DNA from: Nitrososphaerota archaeon | GTDB taxonomy: Archaea; Thermoproteota; Nitrososphaeria_A; Caldarchaeales; Caldarchaeaceae | Assembly: GCA_041641305.1 (NCBI GenBank) | Contig: JBEPYN010000002.1 | Location: 160,001-224,000, forward strand | Direction: 5' to 3' | DNA length: 64,000 nucleotides | Part shown: piece by piece, positions 45,020 to 51,076 of the stretch | Position numbering within the stretch: position 1 is the stretch's first letter | How the letters are laid out: each line of letters opens with the position of its first letter | Program-made: the position numbers and the translations under genes | Notes under the pieces: model-generated | The model's input: the letters and a program-made list of their open reading frames with translations, nothing else | Told to the model about the DNA's origin: nothing | Database searches by the model: none

Positions 45020-45910
45020 CTAAGAGAGCGCGGTATAGACCTCGATTGCCAGCTCCTCGGCCAATTTTCTGGCGGCATCGGCCACGTAGGGAGACACGAT
45101 AGCCAGCATCGGTTTAACACCCACTTCTCTTTCGTACAGCTGTGCCTTGCGCAGAAGCTCAGCGACATCGCCTCTGCTTATGCTTGATTTAACCTCAACA
45201 AGCAGATGAGTATCATCTTTTATGATTAGGTCTACTTCGACAATAGCGGGTCTGCCGTAGACCAGTCCCTCGTAGTCATACCTCGCCCATTTGTCGACGG
45301 TTCCCCCAAACACCCTCTCCACAATATTCTTCATCGCCTCTCTGAAAGAAGATTCAGCCATAAGTCCCCATCTGGCACCTAGGGCAACCAAAGCTCGGCC
45401 TAGCTCGGCTACCTGACTCTGTAAGGCTTTGATGGCCTTGCCGTGTTCTGCGACCTGTTCCTGTAGGGCTTTGATATCTTTGCTGAGTTCTGCGACCTGT
45501 TCCTGTAGGGCTTTGATATCTTTGCTATGTTCTGCGACTTGTTCTTGTAGAGCTTTGATGGCCTTGCCGTGTTCAGCAACTTGCTCCTGTAGGGCTTTGA
45601 TTGCTTTGCTGAGTTCTGCGACTTGTTCTTGTAGGGCTTTGATTGCTCTGGTGTTTTCCGCTACTTCTTGCTGTAGGGTTTGGATGGCTTTGCTATGCTC
45701 TGTAACCTGTTCCTGTAACGTTTTGATTTCTCTGCTGTGTTGAGCCACCTCCTCTTGAAGGGTTTTGATGGCTGCTGTGTTGTTGTCTATTCTCTCGAGT
45801 ACTTCCTTGAAGCCGATTAGGCCTGCTACCGCGTATCTGAACTCCTGGTCCTCTTTGAGCAGACGGAGGAACTCTTCCTTAATCGACACCGTTATAATCC
45901 GTGACACCAA
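45020..45910 (-). CDS. Coiled-coil repeat protein with C-terminal PD-(D/E)xK nuclease-like domain (DUF3782-type)
   Basis: L.ED.EFRYAVAG N-terminus, heptad repeats, LGARWG..E..FR, EVDLII...LVEVKSS. Confidence 0.82.
   Translation of the reverse strand: MVSRIITVSIKEEFLRLLKEDQEFRYAVAGLIGFKEVLERIDNNTAAIKTLQEEVAQHSREIKTLQEQVTEHSKAIQTLQQEVAENTRAIKALQEQVAELSKAIKALQEQVAEHGKAIKALQEQVAEHSKDIKALQEQVAELSKDIKALQEQVAEHGKAIKALQSQVAELGRALVALGARWGLMAESSFREAMKNIVERVFGGTVDKWARYDYEGLVYGRPAIVEVDLIIKDDTHLLVEVKSSISRGDVAELLRKAQLYEREVGVKPMLAIVSPYVADAARKLAEELAIEVYTALS
45395..45772 (-). repeat. Intragenic 42-bp tandem repeat, about 9 copies (14-aa unit AIKALQEQVAEHSK)
   Basis: Units read directly from the protein and the DNA (TTCTGCGACCTGTTCCTGTAGGGCTTTGAT...). 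Confidence 0.9.
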
Positions 45911-46000
45911 ACCCTATAAACTTGTCTGGGCAGTGTTTTACTGCGGCGGAACTGGTTTTCTGAACTGTTTATAAAAGGGTTTTGTTGTTTTTGTGTAGCC

Positions 46001-49000
46001 ATGATGAATGTGTTGGATGTAGATGATATACTTAGCGGTATCAGGGGAGCTGTTAGCGTGGCGCAGAGTGAGGAGGATGTTAGGCTGCGTGTTTCGGGTA
46101 TTATTGAGGAGAAGATTTTGAAGCTTCTTGGGATTACTCAGGTTGGTAGGTATGAGTATACACTTGTTTCGGGTGTTAGGGTTGATGCGTTGTATGGGCA
46201 TGTTTTGATTGAGTACAAGGCTCCCGGTAAGCTTTCGAGTAGGTCTGATGTGGCTAATGCGAAGGAGCAGTTGATAAGGTATGTTGTGGAGGAGGCGGGT
46301 GTTGAGGATAGGTATAGGAATTTTCTTGGTGTTATTATTAGTGATAGGATTGCTTTTCTGAGGTATAATCCGCGGGCCCCGGGTGATAAGTGGGTTTTGC
46401 GGGGGCCTTATGATATTAACCGTGAGACTGTGGTTAAGCTTGTTGAGGCGTTGCGTGGTCTTCAGAGGAAGAGTCTTGGTGTCGAGTCGCTTGTTAGGGA
46501 TTTTGGGCCTCAGTCGGATGTTGCTAAGAGGATGGTGAAGCTTCTGTATGAGCGGTTGAGGGGTAGCAATTCGGCGAAGGTTAGGGTTCTTTTTGAGGAC
46601 TGGTTTAGGCTTTTCTCTCAGACTACTGGTTACTCGGCGGAGAGGCTTAGGGAGTTGAAGGAGTTGGTTGATAGGTATGGTTTTAAGGGTAAGGTTGATT
46701 ATGATTCGCTGCTTTTCTGTCTCCATACTTATTATGCTTTTGTGATGAAGTTGTTGGCTGCGGAGATTGCTTATTTGTATGGTTCTGGTAAGTGGTTGAA
46801 GTCGTATGTTGGTGAGTTGGAGAACGCGTATCTTCAGGGTGGGGTTGACTCGCTGCGGCAGGTTTTGAGGGAGCTTGAGGAGGGCGGGGTTTTCACCAAG
46901 TTGTTGAATATTGTTAACTTTGTTGAGGGTGATTATTTTTCATGGTATTTGGATGTTTTGGATAAGGATTTGGGGGATGCTGTTGCGGAGGTTGCGAGGA
47001 GGTTGTCGGATTATGAGCCTGCTACTCCTCAGCTTGAGCCTGAGTCTGCTCGTGACTTGTTGAAGCGGTTGTATGAGTCTCTTATTCCGCGTGATGTTCG
47101 TCATAAGCTGGGTGAGTTTTATACGCCTGATTGGTTGGCTGAGCTTGTTTTGGATGAGGTTGGGTTGACGGTTGAGCGGTTTGAGGAGCTTGGTGCTGAG
47201 AATTCTTTGAGGCCTCTTGAGCTGCGTGTTTTGGACCCTGCGTGTGGTTCTGGGACGTTTCTGGTGCTTTATCTGCGTAGGTTGAGGGAGTATGCTGAGG
47301 AGCATTATATGGTGGACCAACTTGTTGATTATGTTTTGCGTAATGTTGTTGGGTTTGATTTAAATCCTTTGGCAGTTTTGGCCGCTCGGACCAATTATCT
47401 GCTGACGATAGGGGATTTGCTGACGCATGCCAAGGGGACTGTTGAGATTCCTGTGTATTTGGCGGATTCTATCATGGTTGAATCTAAGAGTGATCTTCGT
47501 GGTCAGGTTTATGTTTTGAGGTCGGCTGCGGGTGTTTTTGAGATTCCTAAGGCTGTTGTTGATGGTGGTTTTCTTTCGGATGTTTTGAATGATGTTAAGA
47601 TGGCTGTGGCGAATAGGTATACTGTGGGCGAGTTTAAAGGTTTTGTGTGTTCGAAGTATGGGTTTTCTGATGTTGATGTGGATGTTTTGGGGAAGTTGTT
47701 TGATGTGTTTCTTAGGCTGGAGAAGGAGGGGAAGAATCATGTCTGGGTGTCGATTGTGAGGAATGCTTTTGCACCGATTCTGAAGGGGAGGTTTGACTAT
47801 GTGGTCGGTAATCCGCCGTGGGTTGCATGGGAGAATCTACCTGCTGCATATAGGGAGGTAACCTCCGATATCTGGGGGAAATATGGACTTGTTAGCCGTG
47901 GTGCTGGTCGGTTTAAGCGTGATTTGTCTATGTTGTTTCTTGTGAGGTGTTTTGATCTCTATTTACGGGATGGTGGGGTTTTGGGTTTTCTTCTGCCGTT
48001 TACTCTGTTTAAGACGCAGGCGGGGGCGGGGTTTAGAGAGTTTGTAGCCAAGTGGCAGGTTAAGAAGATTCATGATTTGGTTACTCTTTATCCGTTTGAG
48101 GGGGCTGTTAATAGGTCGGCTGCTATCGTGGTGGCCAAAATTAGGGAACATGCGGGACAACATGCCTATCCTCATGTCATTTGGAATACACGTGACAATA
48201 GACCGGTTCCTCCTGATTCTACGTTTGGAGACGTTTTTAGGATGACAGACAGGCATGAAGCGCTTATGGCTCCGTTAATTGAAAATAATCCTGGCTCTCC
48301 GTGGGCCCAATCAACTCCATTAGTAATGGAGGCTATGAGAAAAATCTTGGGGCGTTCAGAATATCGAGCATACGAAGGGGTCTTATTTGCTTTGAATCAG
48401 GTATATTGTGTCAGGATTTTAGAAAAAGATAAAGATGGTTTGCTTCTGATAACCAATCCAGAGGAAAGCGGTCAAAAGAAAACAGTTAAAACTATACACG
48501 CAAAAATAGAGCCAGACCTTGTCTATCCCATTATAAGGGGGCGTGACGTAAAAAGATGGTGCGTAAACTACAAGGGGCTATACACTATCATACCCCACAA
48601 AACTGACGGACAACCAATCTCTCATCATGAGATGAAAAAACGTTTTCCAAAAACTTGGGATTACTTTTATACTTTTTTTAACGAGTTGATAAATAGAAAA
48701 GGAGGATTTTTAGACCAAAAAATGAAGCCTTATAGAACCTTGAAGTTAGAATCAGCTGAGAAAAAAACCGTACCCTTCTATTATGTAATGAACAAAGTTG
48801 ACGCTGCCTTCTCCCCTTACAAGGTTGTCTGGAAGGCCATCTTTGGTGCAATAACGGGAAAAGCTGTTGATTTTGCATGTTCAGTTGTTTTCACAATTAA
48901 AGACACACTTCTAGGAGAACGCCCAGTAATCCCAGAGCATTCACTGATGTTGGTTCCATTAAAATCAAAAGAAGAGGCATATTACCTAGCAGGAGTTTTA

Positions 49001-49630
49001 AACTCAACCCCACTAAAACTAGTTATAGCATCATATACATTCGAGCTGGGCGGATACACACATATATTGGATTTTCTGAGAATCCCAACGTACAACGGAG
49101 CTCCACTACAAAAAACAATCGCGGCAATTAGCGAAAAAGCACACGAAATAACTAAAAAGATTAACGAGAAAAAGCACGACCTTACACATGAACTGAACGA
49201 AATAGAAGAACAGCTGGATAAAGCGGTTGCTGAGCTTTATGGTTTGTCTGATGTAGAGCTTGCGGATATTAAGCGGTTTTTCGCAATCCTCGCCGGCGAA
49301 GAAATCTCCGAGGAAGAGACCGTTGAAGAGGAGGAGGCGGAGCTGAGCATAACTTTCCCCAAAACCGTCCTAACACCCAACCAACCCGAAACAATAACCA
49401 TCCACATTACCAACCCCGACAGCCAACCCCTCACAATAACCCTCAACCTCCCAGACAACCAAACAACAACAATCACCACAAACAACCAAGAACACACAGA
49501 AGACATCCCCATAAACCCCCTCCCACCAGGCACATACACACTCACCTACACCATACAAACAAACAACCAAACAATCAAACAAGACACAGTAGAAATAACC
49601 GTCACACAGCCAAGGAGGTTCAGAACATAA
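46001..49630 (+). CDS. Type IIG-like fused restriction endonuclease / N6-adenine methyltransferase with TRD and C-terminal Ig-like tail
   Basis: N-terminal EEDVR...VDALYG..LIEYK nuclease motif; GEFYTP, LDPACGSGTF, GNPPW (gamma-class MTase); TRD with RGRDV..W and YYL.GVLNS; acidic linker then a beta-rich T/N/P domain. Confidence 0.9.
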   Translation: MMNVLDVDDILSGIRGAVSVAQSEEDVRLRVSGIIEEKILKLLGITQVGRYEYTLVSGVRVDALYGHVLIEYKAPGKLSSRSDVANAKEQLIRYVVEEAGVEDRYRNFLGVIISDRIAFLRYNPRAPGDKWVLRGPYDINRETVVKLVEALRGLQRKSLGVESLVRDFGPQSDVAKRMVKLLYERLRGSNSAKVRVLFEDWFRLFSQTTGYSAERLRELKELVDRYGFKGKVDYDSLLFCLHTYYAFVMKLLAAEIAYLYGSGKWLKSYVGELENAYLQGGVDSLRQVLRELEEGGVFTKLLNIVNFVEGDYFSWYLDVLDKDLGDAVAEVARRLSDYEPATPQLEPESARDLLKRLYESLIPRDVRHKLGEFYTPDWLAELVLDEVGLTVERFEELGAENSLRPLELRVLDPACGSGTFLVLYLRRLREYAEEHYMVDQLVDYVLRNVVGFDLNPLAVLAARTNYLLTIGDLLTHAKGTVEIPVYLADSIMVESKSDLRGQVYVLRSAAGVFEIPKAVVDGGFLSDVLNDVKMAVANRYTVGEFKGFVCSKYGFSDVDVDVLGKLFDVFLRLEKEGKNHVWVSIVRNAFAPILKGRFDYVVGNPPWVAWENLPAAYREVTSDIWGKYGLVSRGAGRFKRDLSMLFLVRCFDLYLRDGGVLGFLLPFTLFKTQAGAGFREFVAKWQVKKIHDLVTLYPFEGAVNRSAAIVVAKIREHAGQHAYPHVIWNTRDNRPVPPDSTFGDVFRMTDRHEALMAPLIENNPGSPWAQSTPLVMEAMRKILGRSEYRAYEGVLFALNQVYCVRILEKDKDGLLLITNPEESGQKKTVKTIHAKIEPDLVYPIIRGRDVKRWCVNYKGLYTIIPHKTDGQPISHHEMKKRFPKTWDYFYTFFNELINRKGGFLDQKMKPYRTLKLESAEKKTVPFYYVMNKVDAAFSPYKVVWKAIFGAITGKAVDFACSVVFTIKDTLLGERPVIPEHSLMLVPLKSKEEAYYLAGVLNSTPLKLVIASYTFELGGYTHILDFLRIPTYNGAPLQKTIAAISEKAHEITKKINEKKHDLTHELNEIEEQLDKAVAELYGLSDVELADIKRFFAILAGEEISEEETVEEEEAELSITFPKTVLTPNQPETITIHITNPDSQPLTITLNLPDNQTTTITTNNQEHTEDIPINPLPPGTYTLTYTIQTNNQTIKQDTVEITVTQPRRFRT

Positions 49631-51076
49631 ATGAGCTCCCACGACCTCTACAGAAAAATCCAAATCTTCCTCGGAGACCTCGCAACAAACAAACACCTCG
49701 CATCAACCAAAGAATACAACATGCTCCCCCGATACGTCGTCGAATACCTCGTCAGCGAATTCATAAAAACACACGGCCCAACAAACTACGCACCAAAACT
49801 ATCCGAATACATCGCAAACCACTACCGAGAAGCACGGGAAAAAGACAAAGTCCTCCACGAAACCATGAACGGAAACACAGTCCACCTCATAGACGAAATC
49901 AAAGTCGAAACAGACGTAACCATAGAAAACTACCGAACACACCTCATGAACCTAGGAATAAAAGACGCCATGATAGCCAAACCAGTAATAGACAGCTACG
50001 AAAACCTCCTCGTCACAGGGATGTGGGGAGAAGCAAAAATCCAATACAACCCCGAAATAGTTCCCCGCAACATAAAAGGCGAACCACTCCTCACGCCCAT
50101 AATCATCACAGAATTCAAACCATTCCAAAGCCCGGTAACAGACCCAACAATCCTAAAAGACGCAAGACAAGCATTCACCTTCGACGAATGGCTCGACACA
50201 CTCATAAACACCATAGGCCTCAACCACGAAAGATACAGCAAACGCCAAAAACTCATCCTACTCTCCCGCCTAACACCACTCGTCGAAAACAACACCCACA
50301 TAATAGAACTCGGCCCAAGAGCAACAGGCAAAACATACCTCTACAGAAACACAACATACTACACAAGAATATTCTCAGGAGGAAACATCTCCCCCGCAGT
50401 CCTCTTCTACCACATAGCAAGACGAAGCCTCGGAGAAATAGCCGTAAAAGACACAGTCATATTCGACGAAATAAGCAAAATCAAATTCAACAACCCCGAC
50501 GAAATGATGGGAAAACTCAAAGACTACATGGAAAGCGGCCACTACGAAAGAGGCCCCAAAAAAGCATACAGCACATGCTCCCTCGTATTCATGGGCAACA
50601 TAACAGTCGAAACAAGAGGAACAGCCTACGCACCCATAGAAGAATTCACATACGTCCTCCCAGAAGCCATGCGAGACAGCGCATTCATAGACAGACTCAA
50701 CGCCATAATCCCCGGCTGGGAACTCCCAAAAATAAGCCACTCAGCCCTCCACCTAAGCAGAGGATACGGAATAGCCAGCGACTACTACGCCGAAGCCCTC
50801 CACGAACTCCGCAAACAAAACTACCAACACATCATACAACAAGAAACACAGCTCATAGGCAACTACACAATAAGAGACGAAAAATCAGTCCTAAAAATAG
50901 CCAGCGCCCTCCTCAAACTCCTCACACCCAACGCCGACAGAGACGGAATAGCCCGCGACGAACTCAAACAAATAATGGACATAGCCGTAGAATACCGCAA
51001 CCAAGTAAGAGAATGGCTACGCATCCTCCAGCCCGGCGAATACCCCAAAGAAAAACTACACTACAAAACATCCTAA
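49631..51076 (+). CDS. brxL: BrxL-family MCM-like AAA+ ATPase lacking the Lon protease domain
   Basis: NLL..GMWG, EWLD.LI.TIG, ELGPRATGKTY.Y, FDEI, LKDYMESG.YERG, DSAFIDR....PGWE.PK, G.A.DY..E.LH; 481 aa with no Lon Ser-Lys domain. Confidence 0.85.
   Translation: MSSHDLYRKIQIFLGDLATNKHLASTKEYNMLPRYVVEYLVSEFIKTHGPTNYAPKLSEYIANHYREAREKDKVLHETMNGNTVHLIDEIKVETDVTIENYRTHLMNLGIKDAMIAKPVIDSYENLLVTGMWGEAKIQYNPEIVPRNIKGEPLLTPIIITEFKPFQSPVTDPTILKDARQAFTFDEWLDTLINTIGLNHERYSKRQKLILLSRLTPLVENNTHIIELGPRATGKTYLYRNTTYYTRIFSGGNISPAVLFYHIARRSLGEIAVKDTVIFDEISKIKFNNPDEMMGKLKDYMESGHYERGPKKAYSTCSLVFMGNITVETRGTAYAPIEEFTYVLPEAMRDSAFIDRLNAIIPGWELPKISHSALHLSRGYGIASDYYAEALHELRKQNYQHIIQQETQLIGNYTIRDEKSVLKIASALLKLLTPNADRDGIARDELKQIMDIAVEYRNQVREWLRILQPGEYPKEKLHYKTS

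Follow-up and report, generated by a model that had tools for sequence, protein, structure and literature searches.

In the genome of a hot-spring archaeon of the Nitrososphaerota (lineage Caldarchaeaceae; assembly GCA_041641305.1), the gene of a Type IIG restriction endonuclease-methyltransferase is directly followed by that of a short BrxL, an AAA+ ATPase that has been called specific to types 1 and 4 of the bacteriophage exclusion (BREX) systems in a 2026 survey (PMC12839542). The two genes (gene 1 and gene 2) occupy positions 46001 to 51076 of the window, by which we mean the whole stretch of 64,000 nucleotides (nt) that was analysed (contig JBEPYN010000002.1, positions 160,001 to 224,000). 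We propose that they form a self-contained, two-gene, BREX-independent and ATP-coupled restriction-modification system in which a C-terminal tail of the enzyme couples it to BrxL, a proposal to which we give a probability of about 0.6. The pairing of a Type IIG enzyme with BrxL has no description in the literature searched, where most subscription journals were outside coverage, and it is most likely an undescribed two-component ATP-coupled restriction-modification system. An earlier note on this DNA had already described a minimal unit of this kind. Its two open reading frames (ORFs), of 1209 and 481 amino acids, are exactly as it claimed, the TAA of gene 1 (49628-49630) abutting the ATG of BrxL (49631).

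The product of gene 1 matches the PADLOC model PDLC03630 (REase_MTase_IIG) with 1216 bits, from residue 11 to residue 1098 and on a model of 1100 positions, and it matches Eco57I, N6_Mtase and MmeI_Mtase in Pfam. Residues 1099-1209 fall past the end of the PADLOC model. The nuclease, the gamma-class methyltransferase, the target-recognition region, the acidic linker and the beta-rich tail that the earlier note had listed are all present at the motifs that it gave (Table 1). Nuclease and methyltransferase, with their catalytic motifs, are thus joined in one chain. Of 32 tail-bearing relatives, 29 retain the nuclease motif, which argues that BrxL is no substitute for a lost nuclease, and NPPW is present in all relatives checked. 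The same chain holds its own target-recognition domain, as seen from the model match up to residue 1098 and from a natural exchange of the specificity cassette: positions 47101-48525 and 49203-49432 have a close match in a contig obtained in a different hot-spring study, where 680 unrelated bases replace 48526-49202. In the comparison with the nearest relative, locus L002, identity is as low as 43% over residues 701-1075, where synonymous sites are saturated, compared with 81-91% in the flanks. As for solitary action, the remaining property of a Type IIG enzyme, the conserved partner gene and the putative adaptor tail seem to speak against it. No close solved structure was found for the enzyme.

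Gene 2 encodes a short BrxL. Its match to NCBIfam TIGR02688 (469 bits, cut-off 329) covers practically the full model, positions 6-448 of 449, and the protein contains the N-terminal domain (PF20442, BrxL_N) and the AAA+ ATPase domain (PF13337, BrxL_ATPase) with Walker A and B motifs. The protein aligns with residues 29-459 of the solved Acinetobacter BrxL, 8EMC (E 3e-69, 237 bits), and its end coincides with the start of the Lon-like domain of 8EMC; both comparisons bear out the earlier description of a BrxL of 481 residues devoid of a Lon domain. Walker A is intact in all 33 enzyme-linked BrxL proteins compared, and Walker B in 31 of them. The Acinetobacter protein is a DNA-encircling, ATP-dependent hexameric or heptameric ring (PMC10164562), and to judge from this homology the gene 2 product would form a DNA-encircling ATPase ring as well. 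It is the only NTPase of the pair, given that no helicase domain that could provide a superfamily 2 (SF2) helicase-type motor is present in either protein in Pfam, PADLOC and NCBIfam scans. Enzyme-linked BrxL proteins of the Bathyarchaeia loci L003 (9995-11890), L004 and L005 (9995-11929) have 632-646 amino acids, compared with the usual 470-480, and bear a C-terminal extension of about 160 amino acids.

A pair made of a restriction enzyme and a BREX protein could have been left behind when pglZ, brxC and other genes were deleted from a larger BREX locus, an alternative that the earlier note had itself raised. It would agree with the description of BrxL otherwise only in BREX types 1 and 4 (PMC12839542), and with the weak similarity of the methyltransferase core of the enzyme to PglX models. 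This similarity amounts to 21-51 bits, against NCBIfam PglX cut-offs of 400-900, and is confined to the S-adenosylmethionine-binding region; moreover, the enzyme retains a nuclease domain, which PglX does not have. The host genome (1.66 Mb, 99.3% complete) contains a single copy of BrxL and gives no match to PglZ (PF08665), to the BrxC/BrxD and PglY ATPases (PF10923) or to BrxB (PF08747). Neither does it match BrxA (PF08849), but the same search is silent in all 14 control genomes and this negative is weak evidence. The earlier note had reported that brxA, brxB, brxC, pglZ and brxP are missing beside the pair, and had reasoned that pglZ or brxC elsewhere in the genome would speak against an independent unit; genome-wide profile searches found none of the first four, brxP not being among the genes searched for. 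PglZ over cut-off is absent from five further genomes with the pair, including the complete genome of Pyrobaculum oguniense TE7 and two Thermotogaceae. In a sample of 400 genomes of the same phylum as the window, 32 have BrxL and none of these has a real PglZ. Weak partial matches to the PglZ domain (26-35 bits, proteins of 368-500 amino acids) occur in 9 of the 400, two of which carry BrxL at more than 100 kb from the match. About 11 of the 23 full-length BrxL copies in this sample directly adjoin a member of the gene 1 family, and several others lie at contig ends. The two-gene form is a conserved state found at dozens of loci in several phyla, and the ratios of nonsynonymous to synonymous substitution against L002 (0.22 for the enzyme core, 0.13 for the tail and 0.14 for BrxL) indicate purifying selection on all parts of the cassette. 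Descent from a BREX locus by deletion is, for practical purposes, refuted.

Recurrence of the pair was followed in two sets, one of 80 genome loci anchored on BrxL and the other of 80 metagenome loci anchored on the enzyme. The BrxL-anchored set has 24 loci, spread over several archaeal phyla and Thermotogaceae, in which the enzyme gene precedes BrxL in the same orientation, and the pair appears in 20 loci of the second set. The pairing is therefore recurrent, which, together with the abutting genes and the separate BrxL clades, supports the minimal unit proposed at the outset. The two genes abut in 12 of the 24 loci; the other 12 have between them one to four unrelated small genes, coding for PIN, MazF, an RNase H-like exonuclease, an extra methyltransferase or domains of unknown function. 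The predominance of abutting genes suggests translational coupling. In the BrxL tree, the enzyme-linked copies make up two starred clades, one with all of its 11 rows linked to the enzyme and the other with 8 of 10, the remaining two rows being at contig starts. Both are apart from the clades of the DUF1156/DUF499 operons, of the Nitrososphaerales-specific partner, of another partner and of the long BREX BrxL. Two loci, L016 and L037, were dropped as cassettes: their enzyme is tail-less and lies 2.4-3.4 kb from BrxL, with other genes in between, some on the opposite strand, and their BrxL belongs to the DUF1156 clade.

A comparative link between the two proteins is provided by the tail. An enzyme was taken as tail-bearing when it reached at least 110 amino acids beyond residue 1098, and the 3' end of its gene was readable in roughly 70 of the enzyme-anchored loci. 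In all 20 tail-bearing loci of this set, BrxL starts 0-51 nt downstream. About 25 tail-less loci have 1.5 kb or more of sequence beyond the enzyme gene, and BrxL follows in none of them. When the loci are pooled on the tree of the enzyme core, tail and BrxL occur together in 30 loci and are both missing in 25; no locus has the tail alone, and a single distant locus has BrxL with a tail-less enzyme. The clade that unites tail and BrxL (100*) contains at least three nested joint losses. The view of the tail as the link to BrxL, advanced in the earlier note, agrees with all of these states. Downstream of the closest tail-less relatives (about 50% identity) the genes are unrelated ones, and these relatives are evidently ordinary stand-alone enzymes.

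Tail and BrxL also have a history in common, which differs from that of the enzyme core. Compared with the window, a subgroup A (Bathyarchaeia, Methanodesulfokora and Thermotogaceae) is 55-58% identical in the core and 58-61% in BrxL, and its tail is detectably similar; a subgroup B (Pyrobaculum-type) is 60-65% identical in the core and 48-54% in BrxL, with undetectable similarity in the tail. The window enzyme core groups with B, and its tail and BrxL with A, on starred branches in both trees. Hence, recombination in or near the recognition region would have combined a B-type core with a tail and BrxL of A type, and tail and BrxL would have moved as a unit. These results bear on the idea that the two are independent defence genes that happen to be neighbours in a defence island, the tail having a different function, for instance in binding to DNA or to a surface. 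Defence genes do cluster, Ig-like domains are generic, and PIN, MazF, an extra methyltransferase and other genes have been inserted between the pair in some loci. This idea is nevertheless very improbable, since it leaves unexplained the strict co-occurrence and joint loss of tail and BrxL, the stop and start codons that abut or overlap in most loci, the BrxL clades specific to the enzyme context, and the common history of tail and BrxL, distinct from that of the core.

A distant branch of tail-less enzymes, at 34-37% identity, is represented by L125 (2086-10158), L138 (757-9295) and about 12 similar metagenome loci. Its neighbours are proteins of about 380 and about 560 amino acids with no Pfam match, often accompanied by a B12-binding/radical-SAM-like gene and by a protein of about 465 amino acids.

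The tail was modelled from a 35-row alignment with a mean predicted local distance difference test (pLDDT) value of 77.6. The model consists of a helix, the disordered acidic linker and a seven-strand immunoglobulin-like (Ig-like) sandwich. Foldseek against the PDB returned generic Ig-like folds (the Brr2 Sec63 unit, complement MG domains, transglutaminase barrels, CARDB and PKD), with no PglZ chain among the 50 matches listed, so that the likeness to the C-terminal beta-sandwich of PglZ drawn in the earlier note is unsupported. Prediction of the complex between BrxL and the tail gave a score of 0.60, the best of three controls being 0.00; the runs share at least 60% of contacts and the partner pLDDT is at least 72. 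In the benchmark, the mark applied was reached by 58 of 80 solved complexes and by 2 of 110 mismatched pairs, and scores of 0.60 or lower belong to only 7 of the 80 solved complexes and to both of the passing mismatches. The predicted complex thus lends weak support to binding. As to recruitment of BrxL through the tail, the comparative link holds, and physical recruitment is suggested by the comparative data and by this one prediction.

The end of the tail can be compared with those of other proteins encoded just upstream of short BrxL (L002-L081). These belong to unrelated families, and many finish with a similar peptide composed of basic residues, S/T, W/L/F, D/E, any residue and two hydrophobic residues. 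Examples are RRSWDRLL in the partner of about 1087 amino acids (listed as L027:6728-9991), ARSWDSLVENF in the Nitrososphaerales partner and KRTLEDLV in DUF499; further loci with an end peptide are L050:4553-5761, L018:6496-9945, L043:7343-9997 and L070:4026-6464. The Type IIG enzymes end in KLDELL (A-type) or PRRRSTL (B-type), and two true PglZ proteins in EEFDKLV and EVFDKIL. The PglZ that precedes the long, Lon-bearing BrxL (L080) is without the end peptide. A regular expression written post hoc, after the examples had been seen, matches 17 of 60 upstream proteins and 2 of 813 other ORFs, and 14 of the 32 upstream families. The peptide may be a BrxL-docking peptide.

Other short BrxL proteins occur in operons of different composition. 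In L027 (3339-12764) and 11 similar loci, and in L018 (3526-12683) and three similar loci, BrxL is found in conserved archaeal operons with a DUF1156 methyltransferase and either the no-Pfam protein of about 1087 amino acids or a DUF499 ATPase. These operons also encode two small proteins, of 272 and 172 amino acids or of 304 amino acids and DUF7680, and in them BrxL occupies the place that the helicase has in the DUF499-centred 'BREX-related' systems. In the Nitrososphaerales loci L042, L047, L049, L050, L052 and L056, a no-Pfam protein of about 305-415 amino acids precedes a BrxL of about 500 amino acids in a two-gene unit.

We propose the following model for the cassette. The gene 1 enzyme would read its DNA site through the swappable recognition region, methylate the sites of the host and contribute the nuclease. 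The linker, the Ig-like sandwich and the basic end peptide would constitute an adaptor that couples the enzyme to BrxL. An enzyme positioned at an unmethylated site would tether the BrxL ring, or load it, on the flanking DNA. Movement or clamping by BrxL, driven by ATP, would then bring enzyme-site complexes together and lead to cleavage; alternatively, BrxL might block replication of the invader. Physical binding, the dependence of restriction on ATP and the action of BrxL on DNA are what we infer here, and BrxL may be a cutting helper, a replication block or a regulator, roles that sequence does not separate.

Several points weigh against the proposal. Type IIG enzymes usually act alone and without ATP, and the tail-less relatives at about 50% identity evidently act without BrxL. 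The independent contrasts between tail and BrxL number only three, all concordant (p = 0.25), too few for a test. Unrelated genes, one to four of them, separate enzyme and BrxL in 12 loci. The window tail ends in PRRFRT, only the basic half of the end peptide, and is missing the hydrophobic half that is common to most other BrxL partners. The complex prediction, of weak support, yielded no interface. Furthermore, in the BREX of Salmonella BrxL is dispensable and its loss can raise defence (PMC11341690), hence a role as cutting helper is not the sole reading. BREX genetics as a whole points both ways on the role of BrxL (PMC11341690, PMC10164562, PMC12839542).

The Salmonella data lead to a different view of the partner gene, in which BrxL would be a regulator docked on the tail that restrains or times the nuclease (restriction alleviation, avoidance of autoimmunity) or shifts the balance between methylation and cleavage. 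Deletion of brxL in Salmonella leaves methylation intact and can make defence up to 10,000-fold higher, for which its authors suggest modulation (PMC11341690). That tail and BrxL occur together and have one history would fit a regulator equally well, and the tail-less relatives work without BrxL. A pure brake, on the other hand, would be expected to be lost more readily than the enzyme that it restrains, whereas here tail and BrxL are kept or lost jointly. We regard this reading as unlikely, although more probable than the chance neighbourhood of two genes.

The features of the cassette and its flanks are collected in Table 1. The position of the TATA-like box upstream of gene 1 suggests a leaderless operon transcript, and the GGAGGT within the end of gene 1 is probably a Shine-Dalgarno-like site for BrxL. 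Both flanking genes described in the earlier note are present, the divergent one on the left and the convergent MNT-like nucleotidyltransferase on the right; the decayed toxin-antitoxin partner that it had assigned to the latter was not identifiable, and no recognisable HEPN-type partner was found when one was looked for. The two flanking genes are company typical of defence islands. The cassette is absent from half of the sampled members of the genus, and the nearest relatives of its BrxL are those of Candidatus Caldarchaeum, with 85-92% identity.

Table 1. Positions in the window of the two genes of the cassette, of their motifs and domains, and of the adjoining features
Feature	Position	Strand	Basis
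Gene 1, Type IIG restriction endonuclease-methyltransferase with C-terminal Ig-like tail, 1209 amino acids	46001-49630	+	ORF, PADLOC, Pfam
PD-(D/E)xK nuclease motif, D62-x8-E71-x-K73	46184-46219	+	motif read; D, E and K invariant in enzyme alignment
Gamma-class N6-adenine methyltransferase core, motif I to motif IV	47234-47821	+	Pfam, motifs
Methyltransferase motif I, DPACGSG, residues 412-418	47234-47254	+	motif read
Methyltransferase motif IV, NPPW, residues 604-607	47810-47821	+	motif read
Target-recognition region, including swapped cassette 48526-49202	48101-49225	+	allele comparison, identity drop
Add-on tail: acidic linker (1100-1114), Ig-like beta sandwich (1115-1203), basic end peptide PRRFRT (1204-1209)	49298-49627	+	model, Foldseek
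Gene 2, short Lon-less BrxL AAA+ ATPase, 481 amino acids	49631-51076	+	ORF, TIGR02688, PF20442, PF13337
BrxL N-terminal DNA-binding region, residues 20-139	within 49631-51076	+	domain match
BrxL AAA+ core, residues 158-475	within 49631-51076	+	domain match
BrxL Walker A, GPRATGKT	50312-50335	+	motif read
BrxL Walker B, VIFDE	50456-50470	+	motif read
TATA-like box TTTATAAAAG, 24 nt 5' of gene 1 ATG	45968-45977	+	read from sequence
GGAGGT, Shine-Dalgarno-like site, 11 nt 5' of BrxL ATG, within gene 1 end	49614-49619	+	read from sequence
Divergent gene, coiled-coil DUF3782 and PDDEXK_10 nuclease family	45020-45910	-	left flank
Convergent ORF, MNT-like nucleotidyltransferase, 98 amino acids	51123-51419	-	right flank

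The codons of the cassette are unusual in composition. Both the window copy (46001-51076) and that of L002 (6323-11446) present an extreme, mirror-image skew of third positions. Over the first 2.1 kb of gene 1 these are about 90-97% G or T (keto3 +0.68 to +0.94), the recognition region is neutral, and A or C make up about 90-100% of the third positions of the tail and BrxL (keto3 -0.78 to -1.00). The change of sign falls at the recombination joint that separates the core from the tail and BrxL. The mirror skew is partial in the Bathyarchaeia loci L003-L005 and L009 and absent in the Pyrobaculum and Thermotogaceae loci. With a keto3 of -0.90, BrxL is the most extreme of the 1352 ORFs of the genome. 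Other extreme ORFs (absolute keto3 0.6-0.8, of either sign) include cas6, csa1, cas1 and a Cas_APE2256 gene, and a few housekeeping genes (an AlaX-like gene, an Obg-like GTPase, an NAD(P)HX dehydratase and a radical SAM gene); positions of such ORFs outside the window are, in this genome (G000), C1:442722-443528, C1:452146-453045, C1:832464-833426 and C2:234170-235096. Candidate causes are strand-specific deamination of single-stranded DNA around a recombination hot spot and long residence in an asymmetrically replicating replicon. A transcription-coupled cause was set aside, because the skew, taken relative to the coding strand, is positive in some genes and negative in others.

These results call for a correction of annotation, as current tools label the pair as 'Type IIG RM' plus an orphan 'BREX' gene. 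The phylum sample, where BrxL never accompanies a real PglZ, contrasts with the view of BrxL as a BREX-specific protein. Its role within BREX appears to differ, since for defence it is essential in some systems and dispensable or even inhibitory in others, and the five or six proteins that BREX needs are an obstacle to its dissection. In the window pair, BrxL is combined with one partner only, whose activities (site recognition, methylation and cleavage) are well understood, and binding, loading on DNA, use of ATP and the effect on cleavage can be addressed with two proteins. A wider reading, which we hold with somewhat less than even confidence, is that short BrxL is a portable ATP-driven ring that serves at least four unrelated modification-based systems (the Type IIG enzyme, DUF1156/DUF499, the Nitrososphaerales-specific partner and archaeal BREX PglZ), docked in each by a C-terminal adaptor of the partner, the end peptide of the Type IIG enzyme being placed on an Ig-like domain added to it. 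In that case, the IIG-BrxL pair would constitute a new class of NTP-dependent restriction-modification and the simplest system for resolving the role of BrxL in BREX.

Among known systems, the enzyme most resembles those of Type IIG/IIL (Eco57I-domain, MmeI-like), with which it shares a single chain made of an N-terminal nuclease, a gamma N6-adenine methyltransferase and a swappable recognition region. It differs from them in the added linker, Ig-like domain and basic peptide, of about 110 amino acids in all, and in a partner gene for an AAA+ protein that looks obligate. Coupling of a site reader or nuclease to an NTP-driven motor is found in Type III Mod/Res, in Type ISP and in McrBC, the latter pairing an AAA+ ring with a nuclease subunit. 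By analogy, the reader-plus-motor logic proposed here would be the same, but the motor of the window pair is an MCM-like BrxL ring in place of an SF2 helicase or the McrB GTPase, nuclease and methyltransferase form one chain, and the ATP dependence is presumed. The DUF499-centred 'BREX-related' systems (Hma/MANTIS-like) combine a DUF499 ATPase, a DUF1156 methyltransferase and a helicase (PMC12839542). A DUF1156 methyltransferase and a protein that is DUF499, or has its size, likewise accompany short BrxL in archaeal operons, which makes BrxL a module common to methylation-based systems; the partner proteins are other ones, the BrxL clades are separate, and BrxL is not among the components given in that survey. 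With BREX types 1 and 4, finally, the window pair has in common a short, Lon-less BrxL of the form assigned to type 4 (PMC12839542) and a site-specific adenine methyltransferase. It is set apart from BREX by doing without PglZ, BrxC, BrxA and BrxB, by a methyltransferase that is a nuclease-bearing restriction enzyme and not a PglX, and by its size of two genes compared with four to six.

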